From: Pseudobdellovibrionaceae bacterium
Lineage (GTDB): Bacteria > Bdellovibrionota > Bdellovibrionia > Bdellovibrionales > Bdellovibrionaceae
Assembly: GCA_013359135.1 (NCBI GenBank)
Contig: JABWCN010000002.1
Coordinates: 50,253-114,252 of the forward strand
DNA length: 64,000 nt
Direction of reading: 5' to 3'
In this document: piece by piece, positions 2,711 to 63,089 of the stretch
How the letters are laid out: every line of letters begins with the position of its first letter
How positions within the stretch are numbered: the stretch's first letter is position 1
The notes under the pieces: model-generated
The model's input: the letters and a program-made list of their open reading frames with translations, nothing else
What the model was told of the DNA's origin: nothing
Database searches by the model: none
Position numbers and translations under genes: made by a program

Positions 2711-3025
2711 TTATCTAGAAATAAAATCTAAAATCTCTGTTTTGTCTTTTTCTGGATGGCAAATAATCACTGTTTGTGTTGTGCTGTTGTCTGAATCAAT
2801 GACAGCGATTGCCTGTTCTCCCTTTGGACAAGCTCCAAGACAGCTTGAAGTCATCACTCTTATTTCTTTGCTTAGGCTTTTGCTCCTAAGTTCAGCTTTA
2901 AGATAGTTTTTCAAGTTTTCAGCTACATTTTCAGTATTTGAAAGTTCAGATGGCGCTATTTCTTTACTACATTTAGTGCAAACAAATACCGCACGTTTAC
3001 TCCATGATGTAACTTCTTTTTTCAT
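2711..3025 (-). CDS. thioredoxin-like [2Fe-2S] ferredoxin family protein
   Basis: 104 aa with a CTKC ... CLGACPKG pattern (CxxC ... CxxxCP), typical of thioredoxin-like 2Fe-2S ferredoxins. It is the last gene of the men operon strand. Confidence 0.45.
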   Translation of the reverse strand: MKKEVTSWSKRAVFVCTKCSKEIAPSELSNTENVAENLKNYLKAELRSKSLSKEIRVMTSSCLGACPKGEQAIAVIDSDNSTTQTVIICHPEKDKTEILDFISR

Positions 3026-4238
3026 TTATTAACTCCTTGTATGTAGAGGTATTAAACTCGCTCAATTTTAGCTTGCCAATCTCAGTGAGTGGAAACTTAT
3101 CAGTTAATACATAACTGAATATTTTTTCAAAAGGAAGAACCGAATTGTTGAATAAGTTTAAAATTTTATTAATAGATTTATTTATGTTTTGCTGTGGTTT
3201 AGCTTCAAAGAAAGCTATTAATTCTGATCCATCTCTCTGGTGAGGGATTTCAATAATGGTTGAGTTGGTGATGGAAGGTAAAAAATCAATGCTTAAACTA
3301 TTCAGTCTTTGTCTAAGTAAAAATAAATTTATAAGTTCACCTTTTATTTTGGTAAAGTCAGAACCTCTTCCTATAAAAGAGATTTTTCCTTGAGAAGTTA
3401 AAGAAACGATATCTTCAGTTTGCCAAAAGTTATCAAAGAGTTTTGGAAATTCAAAATCAATATTTCCATTGTCGCCTTCTTTCAGAGTACAAGTATAAAG
3501 TGTATTGCAATTAATAGTTAATTTACTTTCAGAGTTTGTGCTAATTTTTATCTCGTTAAATGGAGTGAATAAATTTTCTTTGCTATCACTGTAAGCTATC
3601 ATGCTACTTGTTTCAGTCATACCATATGTTTTTATGAGTGGCCATCCAAGCTGTGTGGCTTTAATAAAAATAGTTTCATCAAGATGGCCACCACCTACAA
3701 ATACTTTTTTAATAGAGACAGGAGCTTGCAAAACTTTTTGTACAATATCAAAAACTTGTGTTGGGACTAAAGAGCAATAGTTGATTTTATAATCTGTAAT
3801 TATTTTAGAAAAAAGCGCTAAATCCCATTTCTCAAAAGCAAATGTTCTTTGTTTAAAAAGGTGGCTTCTGGCTAAAATGGATAATCCACCTATGTGGTGG
3901 CAAGGTAAACTAGTTAACCAATTTTCATTCTTTTTAAAGGAGAAGTGTTGCCCAACCATATGTGCTGAATTTAAAATTGCCATTTTTTTTAAAGCAACAA
4001 GCTTAATTTTAAAAGAAGTCGTACCTGAGCTTGCTAAAAGTATGAAAGAGTCTCCCATGGAAAGTGGGTTTTCTTCAAAAAAAATATTAATTTTATTGGT
4101 CAGAGAATTTGCTGTCAAAGTTGATAGTTTCTGATTTAGTATGATATAGTTTTTTTTATCATCGAAAATTGATGGTTCAATATTATTTTTTTGAATTAAT
4201 TCGATTTTCATTAACACTCTATTGTTGAAAGTTTCCAT
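2997..4238 (-). CDS. menE: AMP-binding enzyme, probable o-succinylbenzoate--CoA ligase (MenE-like)
   Basis: It has a degenerate AMP-binding motif (ASSGTTSFKIKLV), a YGMTETS motif and a C-terminal conserved Lys region. It is directly downstream of menC/menA/menB on the same strand. The true start is probably ATG at 4210 (TAATG overlap with the menC stop). Confidence 0.5.
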   Translation of the reverse strand: METFNNRVLMKIELIQKNNIEPSIFDDKKNYIILNQKLSTLTANSLTNKINIFFEENPLSMGDSFILLASSGTTSFKIKLVALKKMAILNSAHMVGQHFSFKKNENWLTSLPCHHIGGLSILARSHLFKQRTFAFEKWDLALFSKIITDYKINYCSLVPTQVFDIVQKVLQAPVSIKKVFVGGGHLDETIFIKATQLGWPLIKTYGMTETSSMIAYSDSKENLFTPFNEIKISTNSESKLTINCNTLYTCTLKEGDNGNIDFEFPKLFDNFWQTEDIVSLTSQGKISFIGRGSDFTKIKGELINLFLLRQRLNSLSIDFLPSITNSTIIEIPHQRDGSELIAFFEAKPQQNINKSINKILNLFNNSVLPFEKIFSYVLTDKFPLTEIGKLKLSEFNTSTYKELINEKRSYIME

Positions 4239-10557: not shown

Positions 10558-11076
10558 ATGCTTCAGGAAGTCACTATTTTCACAACAGGTGGAACGATCG
10601 AGAAAACTTATAATGAATTTGATGGTTCATTAGAAAATAGAGGAACTAGTATCAAAAATCGTATTCTTACGAAATTAAGACTGCCAACGACACCAATTCA
10701 TGTTTTTCCCTTGATGAGTAAGGACTCTCTCTACATGACAGAAGCAGATCGTGAGTTGATATTATCACATTTGAAAGAAGCTACATCGAAATCTAATCCT
10801 ATAGTTATTCTTCATGGAACTGACACCATGACAGTGACAGCAGAGTATTGCTGGAAAAGTATTAAATCCCCTAAGGTTGCAGTTGTTTTTACAGGGGCTA
10901 TGATTCCAATGGGATTTGATGATTCTGATGCGACTCAAAACGTCACTGAAGCCTTGCTGGCAGCAAAATTTTTAAAACCAGGTTTTTATATTTGCTTTCA
11001 TAACCAAATATTTAATGTTCCTAATGTGATAAAAAATAAAACCAAAGGAACTTTTGAAAAATTACAGGTTGACTGA
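10558..11076 (+). CDS. L-asparaginase N-terminal-domain family protein
   Basis: 172 aa with TTGGTIEK (TGGTI motif) and ILHGTDTM motifs of the asparaginase/glutaminase N-domain. Only the N-domain is present. Confidence 0.55.
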   Translation: MLQEVTIFTTGGTIEKTYNEFDGSLENRGTSIKNRILTKLRLPTTPIHVFPLMSKDSLYMTEADRELILSHLKEATSKSNPIVILHGTDTMTVTAEYCWKSIKSPKVAVVFTGAMIPMGFDDSDATQNVTEALLAAKFLKPGFYICFHNQIFNVPNVIKNKTKGTFEKLQVD

Positions 11077-11586
11077 AGGACGAGAGACTTTAACTGCTTG
11101 GCTAGTGCCATTGAGCTGCTCTTTGATACAAACTTGAGGGTTTTGCACCACACGCTGTTGCAGTTTAGTGAAAATTGGTTCTCTAATCGCTAAGGAGTTG
11201 TCTTGAAGAACGCACTGTCGAGCAATTTTTAAGGTCATATTAATAATTATAGGGGCCTTCATGTTAGCTGACATTTGTGTTGGGTCATCTGGAATTGTGA
11301 TAACACAGAAGGAGCGAGTTTTATCTGTATGTGACAGCTTTAAAGATTCAAGATCAGTTTTAGTTAAGCCAGGTTGATAATTAGTTACAAAAAGCTCAGG
11401 TTCAAGAAGAGGAAACGCAATCTGAGGTGACTCACAACTTTGTAACCATATAAATATCTCATCAGAAGGGTCATCAACTAAAACGAATTTTCTTAGATCT
11501 GAGAAGCCAAGCAGGCCTTCAGGAAAGTTTATAACGTCATCAGATTCAAATTTCACCTGTCCAAAACGAGAAGTCTGGATAAGCAT
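11062..11586 (-). CDS. fliW: flagellar assembly factor FliW (CsrA antagonist)
   Basis: 174 aa with strong FliW/DUF180 similarity (FPEGLLGF..., MSANMKAPIIIN versus Bacillus MTANLQAPIVIN). Confidence 0.85.
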   Translation of the reverse strand: MLIQTSRFGQVKFESDDVINFPEGLLGFSDLRKFVLVDDPSDEIFIWLQSCESPQIAFPLLEPELFVTNYQPGLTKTDLESLKLSHTDKTRSFCVITIPDDPTQMSANMKAPIIINMTLKIARQCVLQDNSLAIREPIFTKLQQRVVQNPQVCIKEQLNGTSQAVKVSRPSVNL

Positions 11587-11734: not shown

Positions 11735-11998
11735 CTATTTAGAATCTTTATTGCCGGAATTGTTGTTCACTAAGGGTTTTAGTAAACTAGCAACGGATTT
11801 TGATTTGTCTGCTGAAACTTGGGAAGATTCTTTATTTTGATCTTGGATGGCAAGATACACCTCTTCTCTATGTATCTTAGTGTCTTTAGGAGCTTCAATG
11901 CCTAAACGAACCTGTTTACCTTTGATTTGCACCACTCTGATTTTTATATGATCATCAATGGCTATGCTTTCACCCAACTTCCTTGTGAGAACGAGCAT
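11735..11998 (-). CDS. csrA: carbon storage regulator CsrA
   Basis: 87 aa: MLVLTRKLGESIAIDDHIKIRVVQIKGKQVRLGIEAPKDTKIHREEVY is canonical CsrA. A C-terminal extension is typical of FliW-partnered CsrA. Confidence 0.9.
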   Translation of the reverse strand: MLVLTRKLGESIAIDDHIKIRVVQIKGKQVRLGIEAPKDTKIHREEVYLAIQDQNKESSQVSADKSKSVASLLKPLVNNNSGNKDSK

Positions 11999-12414
11999 GA
12001 TAGTCTCCTTAACTTTATGTTTGTAACCCTATCGGAACAAAAATTCGGAACTGTAGGTATAATTTATATGGCCGAAAGTCAAGGCTTGCCAGCTAGATAC
12101 TTACAATTGTTAAAGAAATTTCATTTTGCTTAAAAAATGTGATTTTTTGTATGCAGCAGGAGAGTATGGCTAGTGCTTCAGACATAAAATCCTTTTGATT
12201 AAACTCAGTTCGTCAATTCGCATCGTAGTTCAATAAAAATCAAAATTAATGACAAATTTTGGCTCTTATTTCAAAAAAAAAATCCCTATAAGATTTTATC
12301 ATCTAAAGAGAGTAAAGAAGTTTGACACTCAATTTTGAAAATTGTTCAAAACTCTACAGTCGATTTATAAAAACAGAAGAGTTATTATGGTCATCTATAT
12401 TTTGGAGAATTGTA

Positions 12415-13620
12415 ATGAAATTTTTGATATTACTTTTTTTATTTATCGGAGCCTTTGTAAGTTCATCTATGGCTAATCCAGTAGCTTGTGTAAATACCTA
12501 TAAAAGTTTTAAAGCTTCCAGCTCTTTTGAGAGTCGACTAGAGTTTTTTTTAGATAAAAAAACTGGGTATTTGCCGTTGTTAATTTCGGATTTTTTGCAA
12601 CAGGATTTTAAAGACTTTCTTGATTATTATAAATATCAAGTACTCCTAGCTGAGAGAAAAGGTGATAAGTCTCCACTTAAGTCTAATTTAGAGCTTTTGG
12701 AAACTGTGATAGCAACATTAGATACAAAAATACAAAAAATTGAATCTTTACATGAACCAAAATTGATTCAAAAGATATTTTCTAGTACCAAAAGTAGAAA
12801 ATTAAAGTTGGATAAAGCTGTTAATGAAGCTAATCAGTGTAAGGCAACTTTTAATAAATGTAGTTTAAGCTTAGATGTTGCTATTCAGGAAGCTGGTAAT
12901 AATATTATTTTATTAGAGACATTAAAATCAAATTTGGAAAATTATAGTAGAGAAATATCTGATTTTAATAGCACTCTTGTAGAGCAAGGTGGTAGTGGTA
13001 AATTAGCTAAATATTCCAGTGAATCTTCGCCATTTTTAATTCAGCATTATGAGCGAGTAGTGGGGATTTTAGAAGTTGTTAAATCGTTGCTTCAAATGGA
13101 AGTAAATAATGTCATTTCAGCAAAATTAAAGTTGAATATGGAAGTCCCTACTTTAGAGCAAAAATTTAAAAATTTAATTCATAAAGGAATCGAAGATTTA
13201 TTAATTGAGGGCGATAAAGAAAGAAGTAAAGATTTGTCCCCTAAAAGCAATGGAACTATACCTGAGAAGCTTAATAGAAAAATTAATATTGGAGAGAGAG
13301 TGTATGTTCTAACAGATAATAATAGTGATGTTTATATGGCTACTGTTGTGGCTAAAAATGAATCTGGTGAATACATGGTTGAATCTAAAAAGCATGGAAT
13401 CGTTAAAAAAAATCGTAACAAAATAGCCATTGATGATTATGGTTTGTCTTATGAAGGTATAAAAATTGGCATGAGGGTTGTTGCAATAAGAGATGATCGT
13501 TCTAGTCAATATTTTTCTAGTGTTCTAGGTATTCTACCTAGTGGAGTTTTTATTATTGAAGGACCTGGCAGAGGTACACTTACAGATAAGATTCGTAGTC
13601 TAATTTATGTTGCTGAATGA
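12415..13620 (+). CDS. secreted coiled-coil hypothetical protein with two C-terminal small beta-barrel-like repeats
   Basis: The track start is 12322; the likely start is ATG 12415, giving the signal peptide MKFLILLFLFIGAFVSSSMA. It has long heptad-like regions. The C-terminus has two related ~35-aa segments (ERVYVLTDNNSDVYMATVVAKNESGEYMVE / GMRVVAIRDDRSSQYFSSVLGILPSGVFIIE). Confidence 0.45.
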   Translation: MKFLILLFLFIGAFVSSSMANPVACVNTYKSFKASSSFESRLEFFLDKKTGYLPLLISDFLQQDFKDFLDYYKYQVLLAERKGDKSPLKSNLELLETVIATLDTKIQKIESLHEPKLIQKIFSSTKSRKLKLDKAVNEANQCKATFNKCSLSLDVAIQEAGNNIILLETLKSNLENYSREISDFNSTLVEQGGSGKLAKYSSESSPFLIQHYERVVGILEVVKSLLQMEVNNVISAKLKLNMEVPTLEQKFKNLIHKGIEDLLIEGDKERSKDLSPKSNGTIPEKLNRKINIGERVYVLTDNNSDVYMATVVAKNESGEYMVESKKHGIVKKNRNKIAIDDYGLSYEGIKIGMRVVAIRDDRSSQYFSSVLGILPSGVFIIEGPGRGTLTDKIRSLIYVAE

Positions 13621-16783: not shown

Positions 16784-17119
16784 CTAATTGAGGAGGTCAA
16801 TCTCTTCATCGACCATTTTATCTGCGACGGCTTTAGCATCCACTTTATAATTACCTTCATCGATTAATTTTCTGAATCTTTCCACCTTAGCCTGATCCAC
16901 ATCAGGAGCCGCTAATGCAAGTTCTTTAATTTTTTTGGCTTCTAAGGCTTTGTCTGATAAATTTACCCTGCTTGCTTGATCAGCTGAGCTGTTAAAAATT
17001 GAAGCTGCACTAGTTGAATTGCTTCCTGCTTTTGATTTTTGAGTTCCTTCAGATTTTTCTGATTTTCCACTGTCATTGATATTCAGATTTTGTCCAACTT
17101 TGTTATGGGTAATTTTCAT
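16784..17119 (-). CDS. flgM: anti-sigma-28 factor FlgM
   Basis: 111 aa with a Ser/Ala-rich N-terminal half and a C-terminus FRKLIDEGNYKVDAKAVADKMV matching the FlgM C-terminal helix consensus. Confidence 0.75.
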   Translation of the reverse strand: MKITHNKVGQNLNINDSGKSEKSEGTQKSKAGSNSTSAASIFNSSADQASRVNLSDKALEAKKIKELALAAPDVDQAKVERFRKLIDEGNYKVDAKAVADKMVDEEIDLLN

Positions 17120-17124
17120 GGAAA

Positions 17125-17158
17125 ACCTCCTTGTATTTAGCTTTCTGATTCCTTGTAC
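17125..17158 (-). promoter_or_regulatory. two CsrA-consensus binding sites in the flgM 5' leader, one overlapping the SD
   Basis: The minus-strand RNA reads GUACAAGGAAUC-N12-AUACAAGGAGGU-N6-AUG. The second site matches the SELEX consensus RUACARGGAUGU at 11 of 12 positions. The first matches at 9 of 12. The two GGA motifs are 24 nt apart. Confidence 0.45.
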
Positions 17159-17394
17159 TTTAATCAGAATGTCTCACTAAGAACCAGTGTATCATAGTGG
17201 TACAAAAAACTAAAGTAAGTTTCTAGATAGTTGAATCTACAGGCCTTTAGTGTGTAATTAGGTATATTAAATCGTTAAAAAGTCATAAAATGCAGTATTT
17301 ATTTTTGAGTTGGAGGTAATAGGTATAAGACTTTAGTTTGAGAAAGAGCTGGAATAGCGTCAGCATAGCCATCAAGTTAAAGTTATTTAGGTAG

Positions 17395-28925: not shown

Positions 28926-29354
28926 TTTTTTAAAAAGTAACTCCTTGTATCCAGTAGAGGAATCAAATTCCCTAAGAAAATGTATCTCAGGAAAAACAGC
29001 AATCACGAGTTCAATGGTGGTAAAAACCAAGTTACCTTGGCAGAGATGACCACCAAAAACCTGAGCTTCTTTATTAGCTACCATAGCGTGAACATGTATA
29101 CCTTGGTTAGAAATTAGCCCAGACAAAGACAGTACTTCGTGAGGAGTTTTTTGCTCATAAAAGGAGTTACTATTGGCTTTACGGAGGTTAACCTGGCTTA
29201 AACTCCCAACACTGCTAATAATACCGCCTGAGGTAATATTTTGAGCTGTGCAAAATTTTTCTAGGTTAGTTCTTAAATCATCATTAGGTGATAGTTTTAA
29301 AAAGTAAAAATCAGCCAATTGTGTATAAAAATAATTTTTGTTGTTTTCATCCAT
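28917..29354 (-). CDS. PPC/DUF296 domain protein
   Basis: 145 aa. VLSLSGLISNQGIHVHAMVANKEAQVFGGHLCQGNLVFTTIELVIAV matches the PPC (DUF296) core. Confidence 0.6.
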   Translation of the reverse strand: MDENNKNYFYTQLADFYFLKLSPNDDLRTNLEKFCTAQNITSGGIISSVGSLSQVNLRKANSNSFYEQKTPHEVLSLSGLISNQGIHVHAMVANKEAQVFGGHLCQGNLVFTTIELVIAVFPEIHFLREFDSSTGYKELLFKKLR

Positions 29355-54764: not shown

Positions 54765-55760
54765 TTAAAAAGAATATCGCTTACTTTTTTGAGTCATAAA
54801 ATCTGCAATAATTTTACCTGCTCCACTGGGAACTCTCACGGTGTGGGATAAGACATTCCTTGGTACATAACCAATGACTAACTCAGAGTTTAACTCTTTG
54901 ATAGATTTTTTAGTAACTCCTAAAATCTCTGCTAACAGTTCAAGATCAGTTCCTCCAGGAACAGTCACATAGTCGTATTTTAGCGGATCTCTTTTTTCTA
55001 GGGAGCGAAATCCATACAAATTTGGAGCTTTGGTTATAAGCATTGCTGCTAAAATTTTAGGAACATAGTTTTGAGTTTCTTCAGGTAAAGCTTTTTTATG
55101 AATTAATGTCCAATAGTCTTTAGTTTTGTGTTTTTCAATTTGCCTTCTAAGGCCATTTTCACCCATGTTGTAGCTTGCTGCTACTAGGTACCAGGAGCCA
55201 AATTCGCCATACAAATCCTTAATGTACCTGATAGCAGCTTGTGTGCTTTTTCTGATATCTCTGCGTTCATCGAGCCACCAACTTTTTTTCAATCCATAAC
55301 GTTGAGCAGTTCCTTCGATAAATTGCCAAGGCCCAACAGCATCAGCAATACTCACAGCTGAAGACGAAAAACCTGATTCTATCATTACCATAAAAGCCAA
55401 ATCGGTAGGTAAGTTGGCATTTTGTAACTCATTTTGAATGAATGGTAAATATTTTGAAGAGCGTTCTAGCCACTGTCGAAACCATTTTGAGCCTTTAGTT
55501 TGAAAATAATGAACCCATTTAGAAACCTGTTTATTGTATGTAATCGGTAAATCGAAAATTAAAGCATTAGACTCTGAAGTTTTATTGTTTAGTGTTAATT
55601 CTTTCAACTTATTTTTTAGTGCTTCAGCTTCAGTGGTATTTTTTTGTTTCAAATAATCACTATTAATAACTGATTTTTTTTCAGAAAAATTTGAGGGCTC
55701 CTGAGAAGGAATAGCTCCCCAGGAGCAGATTGCAAAGAAGAAAACAAAAAAGCTTTTCAT
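54765..55760 (-). CDS. lytic transglycosylase (SLT domain, MltD-like), secreted
   Basis: Catalytic E-S motif MVMIESGFSSSAVSIADAVGPWQF. Size and arrangement are like the MltD catalytic module. It is divergent from flgF. Confidence 0.75.
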   Translation of the reverse strand: MKSFFVFFFAICSWGAIPSQEPSNFSEKKSVINSDYLKQKNTTEAEALKNKLKELTLNNKTSESNALIFDLPITYNKQVSKWVHYFQTKGSKWFRQWLERSSKYLPFIQNELQNANLPTDLAFMVMIESGFSSSAVSIADAVGPWQFIEGTAQRYGLKKSWWLDERRDIRKSTQAAIRYIKDLYGEFGSWYLVAASYNMGENGLRRQIEKHKTKDYWTLIHKKALPEETQNYVPKILAAMLITKAPNLYGFRSLEKRDPLKYDYVTVPGGTDLELLAEILGVTKKSIKELNSELVIGYVPRNVLSHTVRVPSGAGKIIADFMTQKSKRYSF

Positions 55761-55920
55761 ATTATTATTATTATCTATTTAAATGGCAACTAAGTTTAGA
55801 AAATCTTTTGACGGTCTGGTTTTAGTTATCGCCAAATTTCTTACAGGTTTAAAGACTGAACTGAATTGATTTAAAAGGATTTATTCAACATAAGATTTGT
55901 TTTTCTTAATAAGGTCTAGG

Positions 55921-55936
55921 TGGCCTTTAATTTGCT
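55921..55936 (+). promoter_or_regulatory. sigma-54 promoter (TGGCC-N6-TTGCT) for the flgF operon
   Basis: GG at 55922-55923 and GC at 55934-55935, with exact -24/-12 spacing. It is 48 bp upstream of the flgF ATG. Confidence 0.5.
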
Positions 55937-55983
55937 CATTTAAGTTCTTGTAAAGCATTAATAAACTATCAGTAAAGGATGTT

Positions 55984-56802
55984 ATGAGTATAAAAGGTGT
56001 TTATACAGCCCTTAGTGGAGCTATGGCTCAAAATCTTCAGATGGATACAATTGCCAATAACATCGCAAATGTGAATACTCCAGGCTTCAAAAAAGACTCA
56101 CAAGTTTTTAATGAGTATTTAACTGCAAATGAAAAACCACCATCAGTTATACAGGTTCCAAGAATTCCAGCAAGTATTGAAAGTTTCTATGACCTTCAAG
56201 GTGGTGATAAGAGTTTTGTTGATGCTAAGGGAACGTTTACTGATTTCTCTCAAGGTTCTTTAAAGCACACAGGTAATCAGTTAGATGTTGCAATTGATGG
56301 AAAAGGTTTTTTTGAAATTGCTACCCCTACAGGAGTCAAGTTAACAAGAACAGGAAATTTTACTTTAGATGGCAATGGTAGGTTAGTAACAAAAGAAGGT
56401 TTTTTTGTTCTTAAAGCTGGTGGAGAAGGTGAGGATCCAGAGGCTCGAAGTATCACTCTCAATGGAGCTCTTCCATTAAGTATAAATGATGCGGGTGATG
56501 TGCTTCAAGGTACTGATGTTATTGCTAAGCTATCACTTGTTGATGTTGAAAATAAGGATAGCTTACAAAAAGTTGGAAACTCTATGTACACGTTTAAGTC
56601 CAATCAACCTGCTGAGGTAGTGGCTTTAAAAAATCCATCAGTAAAAAGCGGCTTTTTAGAATCAAGCAATGTGAATATTGTCCAAGAAATGACAGACATG
56701 ATCAAGACTCAAAGAATTTTTGAGAGTACGCAAAAAGCAATTAGTGCATACGATTCAATCAGCGATAAGTTAGTCAATCAAGTAGGAAAAACAAATGGTT
56801 AA
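55984..56802 (+). CDS. flgF: flagellar basal-body rod protein FlgF
   Basis: N-terminus MSIKGVYTALSGAMAQNLQMDTIANNIANVNTPGFKK, and a C-terminal conserved rod helix. Confidence 0.8.
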   Translation: MSIKGVYTALSGAMAQNLQMDTIANNIANVNTPGFKKDSQVFNEYLTANEKPPSVIQVPRIPASIESFYDLQGGDKSFVDAKGTFTDFSQGSLKHTGNQLDVAIDGKGFFEIATPTGVKLTRTGNFTLDGNGRLVTKEGFFVLKAGGEGEDPEARSITLNGALPLSINDAGDVLQGTDVIAKLSLVDVENKDSLQKVGNSMYTFKSNQPAEVVALKNPSVKSGFLESSNVNIVQEMTDMIKTQRIFESTQKAISAYDSISDKLVNQVGKTNG

Positions 56803-56813
56803 TGAGGTAATAA

Positions 56814-57599
56814 ATGATTAAAAGTTTAAATACTGCAGCAACTGGAATGGCAGCTCAGCAATCAAATATGGATGTTATTGCAAATAATATTGCTAACGTT
56901 TCAACAAATGGTTTTAAAAAGTCTAGGGCAGAGTTTGAAGATTTAGTTTATCAAACTGCTAAAGAACCAGGAGTAGCTACAGGTGAGAATTCTTTTTCTC
57001 CTAATGGTGTTCAAACGGGGTTAGGAGTCAGAACAGCATCTATTCAAAAAAACTTTGAAACTGGTCAAGCTGTGATAACGAAAAATGCTCTTGATATTCA
57101 AATTGAGGGAAGTGGATTCTTTCAAGTGTTAACACCAGATGGACAGATTGCCTATACTAGAGATGGAGCTTTTAAAAAAGATCCTAGTGGAAAGCTGATA
57201 GATAAGAATGGTAATGTACTTCAACCAGAGATTACCATTCCTGCTGGAGTGAAAGGGCTTGATATTTCGGCTAGTGGTGAAGTGAAAGCGATTCAAGGAT
57301 TGAGTGATACTCCTCAGATTATAGGGCAGATTGACATTGTTAACTTTGTTAATCCATCCGGCTTAAAAGCATTGGGAAAAAATTTATTCTCTCAAACTCC
57401 AGCTAGTGGCCAAGCTTCCACGACAAGACCTGGTCTTAATGGTTCAGGTTACTTAGCTCAAGGTCAGTTGGAATCTAGTAACGTGAATATTGTAGACGAA
57501 ATGGTTAATATGATCACCGCTCAAAGAGCTTACGAGACAAATTCAAAAGTCATTCAAGCGAGTGATCAAATGTTACAATCAGTGAATAATCTAAGATAG
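56814..57599 (+). CDS. flgG: flagellar distal rod protein FlgG
   Basis: MIKSLNTAATGMAAQQSNMDVIANNIANVSTNGFKKSRAEFEDLVYQ matches the FlgG N-terminus almost residue for residue. Confidence 0.9.
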   Translation: MIKSLNTAATGMAAQQSNMDVIANNIANVSTNGFKKSRAEFEDLVYQTAKEPGVATGENSFSPNGVQTGLGVRTASIQKNFETGQAVITKNALDIQIEGSGFFQVLTPDGQIAYTRDGAFKKDPSGKLIDKNGNVLQPEITIPAGVKGLDISASGEVKAIQGLSDTPQIIGQIDIVNFVNPSGLKALGKNLFSQTPASGQASTTRPGLNGSGYLAQGQLESSNVNIVDEMVNMITAQRAYETNSKVIQASDQMLQSVNNLR

Positions 57600-57608
57600 A
57601 GGTTTTAA

Positions 57609-58487
57609 TTGAAGACAAAAATAGCGGTATTTTTTTCATTTTTTTTCACACAATTGGTTTTTGCAAAAATGGAAATTGCTTTGGTAGATGAAGTAGAAGT
57701 AACCAAAAAAGAATCCTACAGTTTGTTCGACATAGTATATTTGAAAAAAGGGACAGCTCTTGAGCTAGAGTCGTTAAAAAAAATTAAAATTTTAGATTTA
57801 ACAAAGTCAGAAATTATCAATGTTGTTCGTGATAACAAAGATAAAATACAATTAAAAGTGAATGATGATTTTAAAATTAAAACAACAAAAAATCTTTCTA
57901 GAGAAGAGGGAATAAGAAAAGTTAAGAACTATCTATTAACTCAATGTGATGAGTGTATTTTTGATATTCAAGTTACGCAATTAACTGAAAATTCTATGCT
58001 TGATTTTTCTCTCTCAGAAAGTGCCTTTCAGGGTTCTAGAGGCAGTTTTATGATTCCATTGAAGTCAACAACAAGTAAGCTAACGGGTTGGTTTGTGGGA
58101 ACTTGGAAAACTTTTAAGAAAGTTCCAGTATTAAACAAATGGGTCGCTCAGAAAAGTAGGGTTATGGCAGAAGATTTGAAAGAAGAACTTAAAGAAGTTA
58201 CTTTTTTTATGGATAAAATCCTGAGTAAAGAAGAGCTACTTGGTAAACAGGTTAATCGCGCACTTTCAGCAGGTTCAATTATAACCAGAGAAATGATTGT
58301 CCATGAAGCAGCAGTTAGGAAGGGAGATGCTGTTAAGCTGATTCTTAAAAATGGTGAGATTGAAATTGAAGTTCAAGGCTTTGCAGAATCTGATGGTCAG
58401 TATGGTGAAAAAATAAAAATTAAAACGGGATTAAACAAAATTATTACAGGAATTGTTTCAGAAAAAGGACAGGTAGTTTCAGAATGA
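57609..58487 (+). CDS. flgA: flagellar P-ring assembly chaperone FlgA
   Basis: Signal peptide and a C-terminal SAF-like domain (VRKGDAVKLILKNGEIEIEVQGFAESDGQYGEKIKIK). It precedes flgH and overlaps it by 4 bp. Confidence 0.7.
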   Translation: MKTKIAVFFSFFFTQLVFAKMEIALVDEVEVTKKESYSLFDIVYLKKGTALELESLKKIKILDLTKSEIINVVRDNKDKIQLKVNDDFKIKTTKNLSREEGIRKVKNYLLTQCDECIFDIQVTQLTENSMLDFSLSESAFQGSRGSFMIPLKSTTSKLTGWFVGTWKTFKKVPVLNKWVAQKSRVMAEDLKEELKEVTFFMDKILSKEELLGKQVNRALSAGSIITREMIVHEAAVRKGDAVKLILKNGEIEIEVQGFAESDGQYGEKIKIKTGLNKIITGIVSEKGQVVSE

Positions 58488-59224
58488 AAAAGAATAATTG
58501 GAACTGGATCATTTTATCGTTAATTTCTCTTTCAATAACCTCACTCCTTTCTTGTGCTAATATGGGTGTGTCATCAGAGGTTTCTAGCGAAGATTTTGAT
58601 TCTGGATTAACTAAATATAATGAAAACCCCAATTATGGGGTATGGGGACAACGTCATTATAAAAAGACTACTAAATCTCAGTTAGAAGAAGAATCTGATT
58701 TAGATAGTAAAGCAGGATCATTATGGGTTATGGACGGACAGCAGTCTTATTATTTTACGCAGAATAAAAATCGTAAAGAAGGCGACTTCTTAAATGTCAG
58801 AATTGAAGGAGCTGCTTTGAAGCAAGTTGAAACGAAAGTAAGTATTATTAAAAATTTACTTCAAGAATTAGAACAACAAGAAAAGGATGAGCTTTTTCAA
58901 AAAACTACCCCTAGTGACAAACAAACTAGTGTTGATTTGAGAGCTCCAGCTTCTGAAGCTAAAAAAGCTCCTGAAAAGGAAGAGAAAAGTGAAATTTCTG
59001 ATCTTGGTCCAATTCAAGCTCGTATAGTCGAAAGATTAAATGATGGTAATTACCGTATTAAGGGACAACAACCATTTATGATTGGTAAAAGAGAGTACAA
59101 AGTTATCGTTGCAGGTGTTCTTAGGCCTGAAGATTTTAATGATGAAGGTATAAATTCGTCAAAAATTATTGATCCTCAATTTGATGTTGTTTCTATTAGG
59201 AAGAAGGAAGTGAGTAAACAATGA
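58484..59224 (+). CDS. flgH: flagellar L-ring lipoprotein FlgH
   Basis: Lipobox LLSCANMG, the GSLW motif, and a C-terminal conserved region. Confidence 0.85.
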   Translation: MKKNNWNWIILSLISLSITSLLSCANMGVSSEVSSEDFDSGLTKYNENPNYGVWGQRHYKKTTKSQLEEESDLDSKAGSLWVMDGQQSYYFTQNKNRKEGDFLNVRIEGAALKQVETKVSIIKNLLQELEQQEKDELFQKTTPSDKQTSVDLRAPASEAKKAPEKEEKSEISDLGPIQARIVERLNDGNYRIKGQQPFMIGKREYKVIVAGVLRPEDFNDEGINSSKIIDPQFDVVSIRKKEVSKQ

Positions 59225-60225
59225 TAGTTTTTGGTAAAATTTATTTATTATGTTTTATGATGTTTATGAGCTTATGTGCTCAAGCAGCTAGATTAAAAGA
59301 TATAGCAAGTATTAGAGGAGTCAGAGAAAATCAGCTCGTTGGCTATGGAATTGTTGTAGGTCTTAAAGGAACAGGTGATGGAAAAAATGAGTTTACTGCG
59401 AAAAGTATGGGAAGGCTTCTTGATAAACTTGGAGTTAAACTTGAAAGCCAGGAGGTTCAAAGTAAAAATGTTGCAGCCGTGATTGTAACAGCCACGTTAC
59501 CAGCCTTTGCTAAGGCAGGTAACCCTTTAGATATTACTGTCAGCTCAATCGGAGATGCGGGGAGTCTTCAGGGAGGAACTTTGCTACAAACTCCACTCAG
59601 AGCAGGCAATGAGCAGGTATTTGCTGTAGCCCAGGGAACCGTAGTGATAAGTTCTGATGGTAGTAAAGAAGCTCACACAACAGCAGGAAGAATTCCGAAT
59701 GGTGCCATCATAGAAAAAGATGTTCAAAGTGATTTTGCATCAAAAAAAATGTTTCGACTAACTTTGCACAATCCAGATTTTACAACAGCTGCTAGAGCAG
59801 TATTAACAATTAATCGTGAACTAGGTGGACAGTATGCAGCTGCCAAAGATGCTGGAACAATAGATATTGTGACACCTTTTTCATACGAAAATAAAGGTGT
59901 TGAGCTTTTAGCAACTATTGAATCAATTCAAATTAATCCCGATAGTCGCGCTGTAGTTATTATAAATGAAAAATCAGGAACTGTAGTTATAGGAGATAAA
60001 GTTAAGATTTCAAGGGTCGCTATTTCTCATAATGGAATTAGTGTTAAAATTGGTGATGGTAAAGGGAAAGCTAGTGATGAAAAAATTGCTCTTGTAGAGG
60101 GTGCTAGTGTTGGAGATTTAGTAAATAGTTTGAATAGGGTTGGAACAACTCCAAAGGATCTGATTAATTTACTGCAGGCAATTAAATCAGCAGGAGCTCT
60201 TCAAGGTGAACTAGAAATTCTCTAG
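59221..60225 (+). CDS. flgI: flagellar P-ring protein FlgI
   Basis: RLKDIASIRGVRENQLVGYGIVVGLKGTGD and other FlgI blocks. Confidence 0.9.
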   Translation: MIVFGKIYLLCFMMFMSLCAQAARLKDIASIRGVRENQLVGYGIVVGLKGTGDGKNEFTAKSMGRLLDKLGVKLESQEVQSKNVAAVIVTATLPAFAKAGNPLDITVSSIGDAGSLQGGTLLQTPLRAGNEQVFAVAQGTVVISSDGSKEAHTTAGRIPNGAIIEKDVQSDFASKKMFRLTLHNPDFTTAARAVLTINRELGGQYAAAKDAGTIDIVTPFSYENKGVELLATIESIQINPDSRAVVIINEKSGTVVIGDKVKISRVAISHNGISVKIGDGKGKASDEKIALVEGASVGDLVNSLNRVGTTPKDLINLLQAIKSAGALQGELEIL

Positions 60226-60371
60226 TTATAGGAAATAACTAGACTTTAGAAACCAAGACTAGAGCTAGGAAGAGGATTTTTAAGTTTTTAAAAAAAAATG
60301 TTTTGAAATGAGACGCTTAAAGATAAAATGATATTATAAACTTCAATTTACATGGATGTAAAATGAAGTCC

Positions 60372-60550
60372 CGGGGAGGGTGGGAAAGAGATCGAAAACC
60401 AGGATGGTCAAGAGTCGATGAAAGTTTCTCGCAGGAAACAGAGGAAGAATAAAGCAACATCAAGGATTGATGCTGAAGGAATTCAACCCCAGAGTCTATA
60501 GTGCAGGATGCACATAAGATTCTCCGACTCAAACTCCCCTCTTTTTTTCT
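60372..60550 (+). ncRNA. candidate structured sRNA rich in GGA hairpin-loop motifs (Csr/Rsm-like CsrA-binding RNA) or a long CsrA-targeted leader of the flgJ-like gene
   Basis: There are eight GGA trinucleotides in about 170 nt on the plus strand, versus three on the minus strand. Hairpins predicted by eye present GGA in loops: ACCA-GGA-UGGU (60398-60408), UUCUC-GCAGGAAACA-GAGGAA (~60426-60446), CAUCAA-GGA-UUGAUG (60458-60472), UGAA-GGAA-UUCA (60474-60485) and GUGCA-GGA-UGCAC (60501-60513). The 5' GGGGAGGGUGGGAAAGAGA pairs with the 3' UCUCCGACUCAAACUCCCC to form an interrupted closing stem. It is immediately followed by U7. A TAAAAT -10-like hexamer lies at 60359-60364, so the predicted TSS is near 60372. 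Confidence 0.4.
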
Positions 60551-60578
60551 TTAAAAAAGAATCAGACGAAGGCAAAAA

Positions 60579-61286
60579 ATGATTTCAAAAGTGTCCTCAA
60601 ACCCTTTGTTGATGTCAAAAGACATACAAACTAAAGATTCAGAATCTGCAACTCCTAAAGAGGGTATTACAAGACAGGATAAGGTTAAACAACAGTTTCG
60701 TGAAGTATCTGAACTCTATGAAAAGCAATTTCTTAGGGAGATGGTCAAGTCTATGCGATCTACTATTTCAGAGAGCGGATTAGTTAAAGTTAATCAAGCT
60801 GAAAAAATATTCCGCGAGCAGCTCGATGGAGAATATGTAGAAGGATGGCAAAAAAAAGGTGGGATTGGTCTATCTGACGTAATTTATAATAATATGATGG
60901 ACCGCTTTGGAGAAAAATTTGGAGTCAAACAGCGAATAGAAAAACCCCAGGGGCCTTTACAGTTGAAGGAGCAAGATAATTATTTTTTGAAAACTTCTAA
61001 TGACAATAAAGAAGGGCAGAATTACCAATTTAAAGACATTAAATCTGTTGATGGCAAACCCGTAGCTATAAAAATGCCTTGGCAAGGGTATTTGACCAAA
61101 AAAATCCAATTATCTCCAGATGAGTATTTTCTTGAGGCCAGTCATGGAAATCACTTAACTAGTCAGTTTCATTTTAAAGGAAATTTAAGTGATTTGTCTG
61201 CAGATAGTATTGAAGCAGGATCAAATCTGGGAACTTTAAGTCCTGACTCGAATACTTTGAACTGGAAAGTTTTAAAGTCAGAGTAA
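60579..61286 (+). CDS. flgJ: flagellar rod-binding protein (FlgJ N-terminal-domain-like); no glucosaminidase domain
   Basis: EKQFLREMVKSMRST and GGIGLSDVIYNNM match the Rod-binding domain. The C-terminal about 110 aa is unassigned. Confidence 0.6.
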   Translation: MISKVSSNPLLMSKDIQTKDSESATPKEGITRQDKVKQQFREVSELYEKQFLREMVKSMRSTISESGLVKVNQAEKIFREQLDGEYVEGWQKKGGIGLSDVIYNNMMDRFGEKFGVKQRIEKPQGPLQLKEQDNYFLKTSNDNKEGQNYQFKDIKSVDGKPVAIKMPWQGYLTKKIQLSPDEYFLEASHGNHLTSQFHFKGNLSDLSADSIEAGSNLGTLSPDSNTLNWKVLKSE

Positions 61287-61565
61287 GTTCAAGAGCTGTA
61301 CTTAATTTTTTACCTTAATCTTTAAATAGCCTAATTAATTTGATTTTAAATTTCTCATTTTGACTCATTCTTATTTTAAGATTTTTTGGTGAGTTTGAAA
61401 ATAATCACTTTTAAGCGTCAACAAAATTAGCAAGTGTAAAAGGCTATGATGTTTTAATTTATCAAAACAATATGTATTTTCTTACCTATTTAGAAAAATA
61501 CGAAAATGATAGATAATGGTTATGAGGGGTATTTGTTTTTTATAACGTCCTTAAGGGGGTAATAG

Positions 61566-62324
61566 GTGAAGTCAATTAAGTTAGTTGTTGTATTATCAAT
61601 AGTTGGTACGGTTGGTTTTTTATTTCAAAACTGTCAGGAAGTTTCTGGGGAGAATTTTTCAAAAAATAGTGTTGGTAACAATTCGACAAATACAACAGAT
61701 CAAGCAAGTACATCTAATTCACAGTCTCAAGGTTCTTCATCACAATTTCCTACTGGTCTTGTAACTAGTTCCGAGACTAATCTATTAAAAGTTTCATATT
61801 TAGCAAGTGCTACAGCGAGCACTGACTGTTCTAAAGGAGATGCTAAACTAACTTTAGAAGTAAGTAATGCAGGAAGTGATATCTTGGTATGTCCTGAATA
61901 CAGTTTAGATATGCCGACAGGACATCCTAGAAAAGGTGAAACGTTTAAGTGTGGAAATGATAATTTTGTGGTGCCTCCAACTTCTTGGAAATATGATGCT
62001 GGAGCCAGAAAATGGACTGCGAGTGAAGTTGTAAGTAATTCAGCCTATTTAGTTCCGGGGAGCTTTTATGTTGTTGTAAAAGACAATCAAGGAAATATCT
62101 ATAAGTCAGGTGCGGCAGTTTTAAAAAGGTCTGGGTATGCTAACTGTCAAGTCAACTCTTCTGCATATACAAATAAGAGATGTGCTTGGTCTGGAGGAAT
62201 TGTTATCGGTCCGACACCAAATTATGCAGTTGTAACTAATCAATCTTGCCAATATGGAACTGAAAGATATCAGCATATTGATAGCTCTGGTTCAGTTCAC
62301 AACTATCAGTGTATTTGTCAATAA
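61566..62324 (+). CDS. secreted Cys-rich hypothetical protein with an FQNC motif after the signal peptide
   Basis: GTG start with an AAGGGGG RBS. Signal peptide MKSIKLVVVLSIVGTVGFLFQNC. 12 Cys. Ser/Thr/Asn-rich linker. Confidence 0.45.
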   Translation: MKSIKLVVVLSIVGTVGFLFQNCQEVSGENFSKNSVGNNSTNTTDQASTSNSQSQGSSSQFPTGLVTSSETNLLKVSYLASATASTDCSKGDAKLTLEVSNAGSDILVCPEYSLDMPTGHPRKGETFKCGNDNFVVPPTSWKYDAGARKWTASEVVSNSAYLVPGSFYVVVKDNQGNIYKSGAAVLKRSGYANCQVNSSAYTNKRCAWSGGIVIGPTPNYAVVTNQSCQYGTERYQHIDSSGSVHNYQCICQ

Positions 62325-62478
62325 ACTGCTAAATTAAATCGTCAAAATTTTATCTGGACCCATGAAAAATGACATTAATTTCATGGGTTCTTTGTTTTTT
62401 TTAACCTCTTTTCAAATATAAATCATCTTCAGTAAAAGAGTTTGTCAATAACCTGACAAAGTTCGATGAAGGTCGGGC

Positions 62479-62494
62479 TGGCACTGTGATTGCT
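62479..62494 (+). promoter_or_regulatory. sigma-54 promoter, consensus match TGGCAC-N5-TTGCT, for fliL-fliM
   Basis: TGGCAC at 62479-62484 and TTGC at 62490-62493. This is a perfect match to the -24/-12 consensus. The predicted TSS is about 62505. Confidence 0.6.
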
Positions 62495-62540
62495 GCTTTG
62501 TTAAATGAGAGAAAATTTTAGCTTCATCAAGGAGGATGAA

Positions 62541-63089
62541 TTGGCTGAAGAAAAAGCGGCACCCCCACCAGCAGAGTCAGCAGCCCCACCAGCCGGTGGT
62601 GGAAAAAATAACATTATTTACTTAGTTCTTATTATCATCAATATGCTTTTTTTAGCCGGTGTTGGTTGGATGATTTATCAAGGTAAGAAAAAAGAAAATG
62701 CTGAACCAAAAATTGAGCACGTAATTAAAGGAGAGCATGAAGCTCAGGAAGCTGAACAAAAAGAAGAGAAACAGTTTGTTGGCAAAGTGGTACCATTAGA
62801 AACGTTTATTGTTAACTTAGCCGGTTCCAAGGGCAGAAAAGTAGCTAAAGTGATGATGGAACTTGAGCTCAAAGATAATAAAGATAAAAATGTAGCAGAC
62901 GAAATTGATAAAAGAAAAGCTCAAGTTAGAGATATTATAATCATCATTCTATCTGCAAAAAAGTATGAAGAAATTTCAACTAAAGAAGGAATTGAAAATC
63001 TTAAGAATGAGATCAAAGATACCATTAATTCTTTTTTAACTAATGGAAAAATAACAAACGTATTTTTCACAGAATTTATATACAATTAA
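62541..63089 (+). CDS. fliL: flagellar basal-body-associated protein FliL
   Basis: Single transmembrane segment plus a periplasmic domain with VVPLETFIVNLAGSKGRKVAKVMMELELKD. The track ATG at 62505 coincides with the sigma-54 TSS. In-frame TTG at 62541, preceded by AGGAGG with 5-nt spacing, is the more plausible start. Confidence 0.7.
   Translation: MAEEKAAPPPAESAAPPAGGGKNNIIYLVLIIINMLFLAGVGWMIYQGKKKENAEPKIEHVIKGEHEAQEAEQKEEKQFVGKVVPLETFIVNLAGSKGRKVAKVMMELELKDNKDKNVADEIDKRKAQVRDIIIIILSAKKYEEISTKEGIENLKNEIKDTINSFLTNGKITNVFFTEFIYN

Follow-up and report, generated by a model that had tools for sequence, protein, structure and literature searches.

A candidate two-site CsrA operator on a lineage-specific insertion in the flgM leader of a Bdellovibrio-like bacterium

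In the 64,000-nt stretch of DNA analyzed here (called the window throughout), the leader of flgM, the gene of the anti-sigma-28 factor, carries two CsrA-type motifs. We tentatively interpret them as a CsrA operator with two sites, arranged as in glgC and hag and acquired recently, from which CsrA would repress FlgM translation until the repression is relieved by FliW. We put the probability of this reading at about 0.45, judging from nucleotide sequence and its comparison with orthologous loci. The main rival is a neutral expansion of the leader.

The flgM leader and its two CsrA-type motifs

The window has a G+C content of 34% and stems from a Bdellovibrio-like organism. Its ORF at 16784..17119 (minus strand, 111 aa) matches Pfam family PF04316 (FlgM) with E=1.6e-15, which bears out the assignment to flgM made in the first-pass annotation. 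The ATG is located at 17119..17117, the N-terminus MKITHNK is invariant across 30 aligned homologues and the protein is about 60% identical to Bdellovibrio FlgM, with nearest matches that are metagenomic. According to Pfam matches to FlgM, FlgN, FlgK_D1 and Flagellin_N, flgM is the first gene of a flgM-flgN-flgK-flgL series. In the leader, read on the minus strand as ...CCACTATGATACACTGGTTCTTAGTGAGACATTCTGATTAAAGTACAAGGAATCAGAAAGCTAAATACAAGGAGGTTTTCCATG..., we observed two GGA-centred motifs with an A/U-CA-N-GGA core. The upstream one, site 1, is GUACAAGGAAUC (DNA GTACAAGGAATC) at 17147..17158 (minus strand) and agrees with the CsrA SELEX consensus RUACARGGAUGU at 9 of 12 positions; the downstream one, site 2, is AUACAAGGAGGU (DNA ATACAAGGAGGT) at 17125..17136 (minus strand) and agrees at 11 of 12. 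Both scores reproduce those given earlier for this leader. Both sites contain ACA-N-GGA, the element that is invariant (100% conservation) in the SELEX consensus (PMC7652899), and site 1 is without the 3' GU of that consensus. Site 2 overlaps the flgM Shine–Dalgarno (SD) sequence AAGGAGG, which lies 6 nt ahead of the AUG, so that the earlier description of the downstream motif as the ribosome binding site (RBS) holds; its own 3' end is 5 nt ahead of the AUG. The full AAGGAGG is found in 2 of the 46 gene starts of the window, flgM being one of them. The two ACAAGGA copies are located at 17156..17150 and 17134..17128 (minus strand), which places their GGA cores 22 nt apart, not 24 nt as first reported. 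One CsrA dimer can bridge two sites 10–63 nt apart with an optimum above 18 nt (PMC7652899), and the corrected spacing is still compatible with this range, as had been proposed.

For comparison we gathered 174 loci (80 from reference genomes, 80 from metagenomes and 14 from the closest Logan/NCBI contigs), which provided 153 usable flgM leaders (129 unique sequences, 88 clusters). All of the 153 leaders contain a conserved promoter block, in the window TATGATACACT at 17186..17196 (minus strand), which we read as an extended -10 element (TG-n-TACACT). The block consensus is T(A/G)TG(A/G)TAC..T and its position-specific conservation fits TGnTAC..T. From the position of this block a transcription start site (TSS) is predicted near 17178, and therefore a 5'-UTR of about 59 nt that would begin upstream of both sites and contain them. 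The distance between block and ATG ranges from 20 to 117 nt among the flgM leaders. A sigma-28 promoter for flgM was unsupported: the flgM block is of the extended -10 type, whereas the canonical-looking sigma-28 type is found upstream of csrA (see below). In most lineages the promoter block is preceded by a conserved GTCTCAGAATGATTTGGT-N6-TGTCTC, and the repeated TGTCTC may be a regulator-binding site. The clade of the window has its own conserved upstream block, CACTAAAG(A/G)CCTGTAGAT..CTAGAAACTT.CTTTAGTTTT at 17205..17262 (minus strand), which is of inverted-repeat character (CTAAAG...CTTTAG) and accompanies flgM also at loci with another gene upstream.

Folding of the leader predicts a hairpin at 17143..17169 (minus strand; hairpin 1) with an 8-bp stem, UUCUGAUU/AAUCAGAA, and an 11-nt loop, AAAGUACAAGG, that carries site 1. 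Its predicted free energy is -6.1 kcal/mol (z = -2.36), and 6 of 200 shuffled sequences fold as well. Hairpin 1 is present in the minimum free energy structure folded from the predicted TSS, in which both G's of the site 1 GGA have a probability of 0.99 of being unpaired; the 11-nt loop is larger than typical CsrA hairpin loops. A GGA in a predicted hairpin loop followed by a GGA on the SD sequence is the glgC/hag layout, and the likeness to the hag leader noted in the first-pass annotation is supported to this extent. Around site 2 a weak and optional second hairpin is predicted at 17121..17145 (minus strand; GAAAGCU/GGUUUUC, loop AAAUACAAGGA, -4.1 kcal/mol), which is not significant (z = -0.80) and competes with pairing of the SD sequence to codons 2–6; folds of the full leader favour the pairing between SD and early coding sequence. 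The loops of the two hairpins have the repeat in common, while their stems are unrelated in sequence. Taken as a whole, the flgM leader has a fold of ordinary stability (z about -0.4), and an Rfam scan of the window gave no matches to known RNA families.

We next compared the motif pair with chance expectation. ACAAGGA as such is not enriched across the window (12 observed versus 10.0 +/- 2.7 expected); what stands out is the arrangement, the chance of a same-strand pair spaced by no more than 22 nt being about 0.02. Of 5,000 dinucleotide shuffles of the flgM leader, 72 gave an exact 8-mer direct repeat, and 11 of 20,000 gave the full gapped 12/13 repeat TAAA(G)TACAAGGA, which includes one indel. 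Among the roughly 1,450 GGA-centred 12-mers on both strands of the 64-kb window, site 2 is the sole one to score 11 of 12, and its score of 11 as an SD site makes it an outlier among the 88 orthologous leader clusters as well, where the next best value is 9. ACANGGA has 21 matches in the window, of which four lie in translation-initiation regions; three of these four belong to flgM (two) and csrA (one). A simple 22-nt tandem duplication as the origin of the repeat was rejected, as only the core of 12/13 nt is common and 0 of the 10 following bases match. A repeat limited to the cores, with unrelated stems and spacers, is what would be expected of two binding sites and not of a fresh tandem duplication. 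We also rejected the idea that AUACAAGGAG is simply the favoured RBS of this genome, since among the other gene starts it serves only that of ORF 2711..3025, and an additional copy is intragenic. The RBS of this other ORF (104 aa), ATACAAGGAGTT at 3031..3042 (minus strand), agrees with the SELEX consensus at 10 of 12 positions and lies within the 3' end of an upstream AMP-binding gene; the ORF itself has a sub-threshold match to DUF1636. An identical second copy of ATACAAGGAGTT was found at 28939..28950 (minus strand) within a coding region.

Distribution of the leader insertion among orthologous leaders

In the closest relatives, whose FlgM is 70–79% identical, the promoter region is almost base for base that of the window. 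Their leaders join GAGAC(A/T)AT(T/C)C directly to TAGGAGGCTCTTTATG, and at this junction the window carries about 32 extra nucleotides, which appear in the alignment as a gap of 32 columns in 10 relatives with the same promoter block. The insertion is located at 17134..17165 (minus strand; boundaries +/- about 3 nt), and the 5'-UTR is 59 nt in the window versus 26–27 nt in the rest of the clade. It carries site 1, the ACA context of site 2 and hairpin 1 without the four leading bases of its 5' arm. We found it in the window and in a 99%-identical contig of 1.3 kb (sample SRR25608315), and it was absent from the other 151 orthologous leaders, including those of relatives whose CsrA core is identical to that of the window. 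A similar sequence that could have served as its source was not found in the window or in the 174 loci. Conserved motif pairs in related flgM leaders had been set beforehand as a check, and the outcome was negative for the upstream site: the other 151 leaders have neither site 1 nor the ACA context of site 2, and therefore evolutionary conservation does not argue for a function of site 1. Given its location on a lineage-specific insertion, site 1 is plausibly a recently evolved candidate for a regulatory link and not a conserved one.

For a test across the whole family we used the transcribed part ahead of the SD sequence in the 88 cluster representatives. GGA was observed 33 times in these parts, compared to 36.6 expected from base composition and 27.2 +/- 3.2 from dinucleotide shuffles, and its permutations are equally common (AGG 34, GAG 46). 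GGA located in hairpin loops was not enriched either (21 versus 23.9 +/- 4.1 expected). Sites with at least 8 of 12 consensus positions numbered 7 versus 3.4 +/- 1.7 expected (reached in 15 of 400 shuffles), a marginal excess in a count that includes the window, and those with at least 9 of 12 numbered 3 versus 0.9 expected, again with the window itself included. As the enrichment of GGA, looped GGA and SELEX-like sites is absent or marginal, we no longer regard CsrA control of flgM as an ancestral trait of Bdellovibrionota; the flgM leaders of this family show no convincing sign of CsrA regulation that is either ancestral or recurrent. Independent GGA hairpins occur in the flgM leaders of a few unrelated lineages, namely in L114 (GUGACAAGGAUGUCAC), L028 (GGGCCGGAUGCCC), L045 (GGGUAGGAUGCCC) and the L013 group (GGGACGGAUUCC), and as a class they are not statistically enriched. 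In L114 (metagenome contig Ga0247824_10182659, upstream of 451) the hairpin GUGACA[AGGA]UGUCAC, which is near-perfect by the SELEX standard, lies at the predicted 5' end and 19 nt ahead of the SD GGA of that leader; L028 has GGGC[CGGAU]GCCC and the L013/L098 group GGA[CGGAU]UCC.

CsrA, FliW and the csrA mRNA

The genes for CsrA and for its protein antagonist FliW are both located just downstream of flgMNKL. csrA (11735..11998, minus strand, 87 aa, Pfam CsrA E=6.6e-26) is of the FliW-partnered type and fliW (11062..11586, minus strand, Pfam FliW E=1.2e-36) follows it at a distance of 148 nt; csrA was found in 97 of the 97 sequences in which fliW was found. In an alignment with the CsrA proteins of Bacillus subtilis and Escherichia coli the window CsrA keeps L2, L4, R6, R44, Asn55 and a C-terminal extension, and in this it resembles the FliW-antagonized protein of B. 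subtilis, unlike that of E. coli. Asn55 is needed for the antagonism by FliW. With the CsrA core, the extension, Asn55 and a fliW gene encoded together with csrA, the locus has these features of a FliW–CsrA partner switch. A csrA N55D allele is listed in B. subtilis work (PMC6529632). Residues 1–62 of CsrA are 100% identical in the close relatives and 90–93% identical to those of Bdellovibrio bacteriovorus CsrA, a protein for which repression of the two-stem-loop hag leader has been shown in vivo with a B. subtilis reporter (PMC13443453). In the closest relatives flgM-flgN-flgK-flgL-csrA-fliW form one contiguous block on the same strand. The window has in addition an ORF of 432 aa on the opposite strand between flgL and csrA (12322..13620, plus strand), which has no Pfam family, a signal-peptide-like N-terminus and no counterpart in any close relative, where flgL adjoins csrA. 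No flagellin gene was found in the window or in any collected locus. A second flagellar cluster at about 54765..63089 encodes an SLT transglycosylase, a FlgJ-like rod-binding protein (60579..61286) and FliL (62505..63089). In two more distant relatives (L093 and L094) flgM lies directly downstream of flgF-G-A-H-I-J, from which we infer that the clade of the window moved the flgM operon elsewhere.

The mRNA of csrA itself contains a candidate autoregulatory pair at 11980..12010 (minus strand), composed of the SD sequence AAGGAG (12010..12005) and an ACAAGGA at codons 5–7 (11986..11980); the heptamer begins at +13 and its GGA core is 26 nt downstream of the SD GGA. We analyzed these codons in 73 unique csrA genes obtained from 101 sequences (the window and the collected loci) and found ACA(A/C)GGA kept in 68 of the 73. 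Thr5 is encoded by ACA in 69/73 genes, Arg6 by AGG or CGG in 70/73 and Lys7 by AAG in 72/73, while neighbouring Leu, Val and Gly codons vary freely at synonymous sites. In the long ORFs of the window ACA makes up 29% of the Thr codons and AGG together with CGG 12% of the Arg codons. In the csrA mRNA the heptamer and the SD sequence probably serve CsrA autoregulation as a pair that Bdellovibrionaceae and Pseudobdellovibrionaceae have in common, and the conserved codons indicate that the CsrA of this lineage recognizes ACA-N-GGA. As the ACAAGGA of the flgM leader is the same heptamer that is held by codon choice in csrA, the csrA mRNA provides independent evidence for the motif.

Upstream of csrA we observed a conserved sigma-28-type promoter, TACAGTTC-N11-TCCGATAG, at 12030..12055 (minus strand, extending to about 12085). 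Its consensus is TA(C/A)AGTT-N11-nCCGATAG, the version in locus L001 reads TAAAGCTT-N11-GCCGATAG, and an invariant block, CTTGACTTTC...TATAAATTATACC, precedes it. The window has no other sigma-28-like match, so that csrA-fliW looks like a late flagellar operon with a promoter of its own. If CsrA acts on flgM, this conserved promoter would turn the link into a feedback loop. The family-wide ACA(A/C)GGA codon choice in the csrA mRNA, together with the sigma-28-type csrA-fliW promoter, is the more general result of this analysis.

Proposed operator, rival explanations and known CsrA systems

In the proposed operator the insertion of about 32 nt would have doubled the length of the flgM leader (about 27 nt before, about 59 nt after) and thereby created the two-site arrangement. 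One RNA-binding face of the CsrA dimer would dock ACAAGG in the 11-nt loop of the 5'-proximal 8-bp hairpin, and the other face would bridge 22 nt to AUACAAGGAGGU, that is, to the SD sequence. CsrA bound there would block 30S binding, so that less FlgM is made, and might also destabilize the flgMNKL mRNA. When cytoplasmic flagellin is low, FliW would relieve the repression, and the synthesis of FlgM, a late export substrate, would be gated by the same partner switch as flagellin. The regulatory logic of such an arrangement is not obviously coherent, as CsrA would be free while flagellin accumulates, and repression of an anti-sigma factor at that time would raise sigma-28 activity; one coherent reading would be that export capacity gates flagellin and the late export substrates encoded in the locus (FlgM, FlgK and FlgL) jointly. 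The further-reaching idea that a single insertion put FlgM under the FliW–CsrA switch in one species, and so marks the datable birth of a regulatory link that closed a new feedback loop, seems doubtful to us. In this loop CsrA would lower FlgM, sigma-28 would be freed and csrA/fliW transcription would rise; the loop would be absent from sister species with an identical CsrA core.

Several explanations of the same leader do without CsrA. A neutral expansion, in which slippage or insertion copied sequence near the SD, would leave the upstream AAGGA as a non-functional pseudo-SD and the downstream one as a strong RBS, and the likeness of site 2 to a CsrA site would follow from the likeness of the CsrA consensus to an SD sequence. 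The restriction of the insertion to one species-level lineage is consistent with such an event, the range of block-to-ATG lengths (20–117 nt) suggests low constraint on these leaders, and neither the missing family-wide enrichment of GGA and looped GGA nor the unaltered accessibility of the SD sequence (0.33 in the window versus 0.27–0.57 in leaders without the insertion) points to regulation. However, a recent tandem duplication would be expected to extend beyond the 12/13-nt core, and a neutral event would leave without explanation that each core is located in a predicted hairpin loop, that the repeated heptamer is the one kept under selection in the csrA mRNA and that the score of the SD context stands extremely far apart from those of the orthologues; on balance we regard neutral expansion as somewhat unlikely. 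We consider it improbable that hairpin 1 serves as a 5'-proximal stabilizer of the mRNA, or the upstream AAGGA as a ribosome standby site, so that FlgM output is raised without CsrA. Many orthologous leaders do have an unrelated, GGA-free 5'-proximal stem-loop, for example B. bacteriovorus with AGAGUGUG...CACUCU, and the upstream AAGGA, which is not followed by a start codon, could act on ribosomes only as a standby or decoy site, but hairpin 1 begins about 10 nt from the predicted 5' end instead of at it, and neither role explains the exact repetition of the SD context in the loop or its match to the conserved csrA heptamer.

The element could also act in the DNA, with a transcription factor that binds either the inverted repeat TTCTGATT-N11-AATCAGAA or the direct repeats TACAAGGA spaced by 22 bp and blocks elongation or initiation close behind the promoter. 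The palindrome is a perfect one of 8 bp at about +10 to +36, and with a period of 22 bp (two helical turns) the direct repeats face the same side of the helix. We nevertheless judge this very unlikely, given that the repeated motif is strand-specific in meaning (an mRNA-strand GGA, one copy being the SD sequence), that no second copy of the palindrome was found in the window even with 3 mismatches (1.7 expected by chance) and that a cognate regulator is not evident nearby. Pairing of the repeated loop sequence with a trans-acting sRNA has reported precedents in OmrA/B on E. coli flgM and CJnc230 on Campylobacter jejuni flgM (PMC7549644, PMC11187230), and exposed loops are good sites for seed pairing. 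A candidate sRNA was not found in the window, though, where Rfam gave no matches and the complementary UCCUUGU sites lie within coding regions, and we give this possibility hardly any weight.

If CsrA binds the leader as proposed for the two-site operator, the lineage would offer a natural experiment in the rewiring of a post-transcriptional regulon: one short leader insertion sets it apart from its closest relatives, in which the RNA-binding core of CsrA is identical and the promoter nearly so; if it does not, the leader has just a strong RBS with its own copy nearby. The interest of the flgM feature is modest, since it is a candidate operator confined to one species-level lineage.

The predicted arrangement can be compared with several known CsrA systems. 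In B. subtilis csrA and fliW belong to the flgM-flgN-flgK-flgL locus, and the locus of the window is alike. Unlike in B. subtilis, csrA precedes fliW in the window and has its own sigma-28-type promoter. The B. subtilis hag leader, as described in PMC7652899 and PMC13443453, contains two GGA elements of which one overlaps the SD sequence, as in the flgM leader; in contrast to hag, the target here is an anti-sigma factor and not flagellin. FlgM and CsrA act in parallel on hag in B. subtilis, and CsrA control of flgM is not reported there (PMC6529632). In E. coli glgC, as predicted for the flgM leader, the SD sequence carries one GGA and the loop of a hairpin immediately 5' of it another, and in both leaders the intersite distance is in the bridging range, one dimer bridging the glgC sites (PMC7652899). 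The differences to glgC are the target, the type of CsrA (FliW-partnered, whereas that of glgC is sRNA-antagonized), the 11-nt loop and the fact that the flgM operator is a prediction. E. coli CsrA also represses its own translation (Yakhnin et al. 2011, as summarized in PMC7652899), which the pair of SD sequence and ACA(A/C)GGA in our csrA genes resembles; this comparison concerns csrA and not flgM, and serves only as independent evidence for the recognized motif. The CsrA of C. jejuni, with flaA as its main target, is FliW-antagonized, as would be expected for the type found in the window. In C. jejuni flgM mRNA was enriched 5-fold in a CsrA co-immunoprecipitation and binding was confirmed by gel shift (EMSA), with enrichment over the ORF and no 5'-UTR signal listed, whereas the sites in the window are a leader hairpin and the SD sequence (PMC4894983). 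flgM also turned up in a CsrA RIP-seq of Pseudoalteromonas (PMC11882849). CsrA acting on flgM is already known from C. jejuni (PMC4894983), and neither the kind of element nor the target is new; if the element is functional, its novelty would lie in the combination of a hairpin and an SD site as an operator on flgM in Bdellovibrionota, and in its having arisen very recently.
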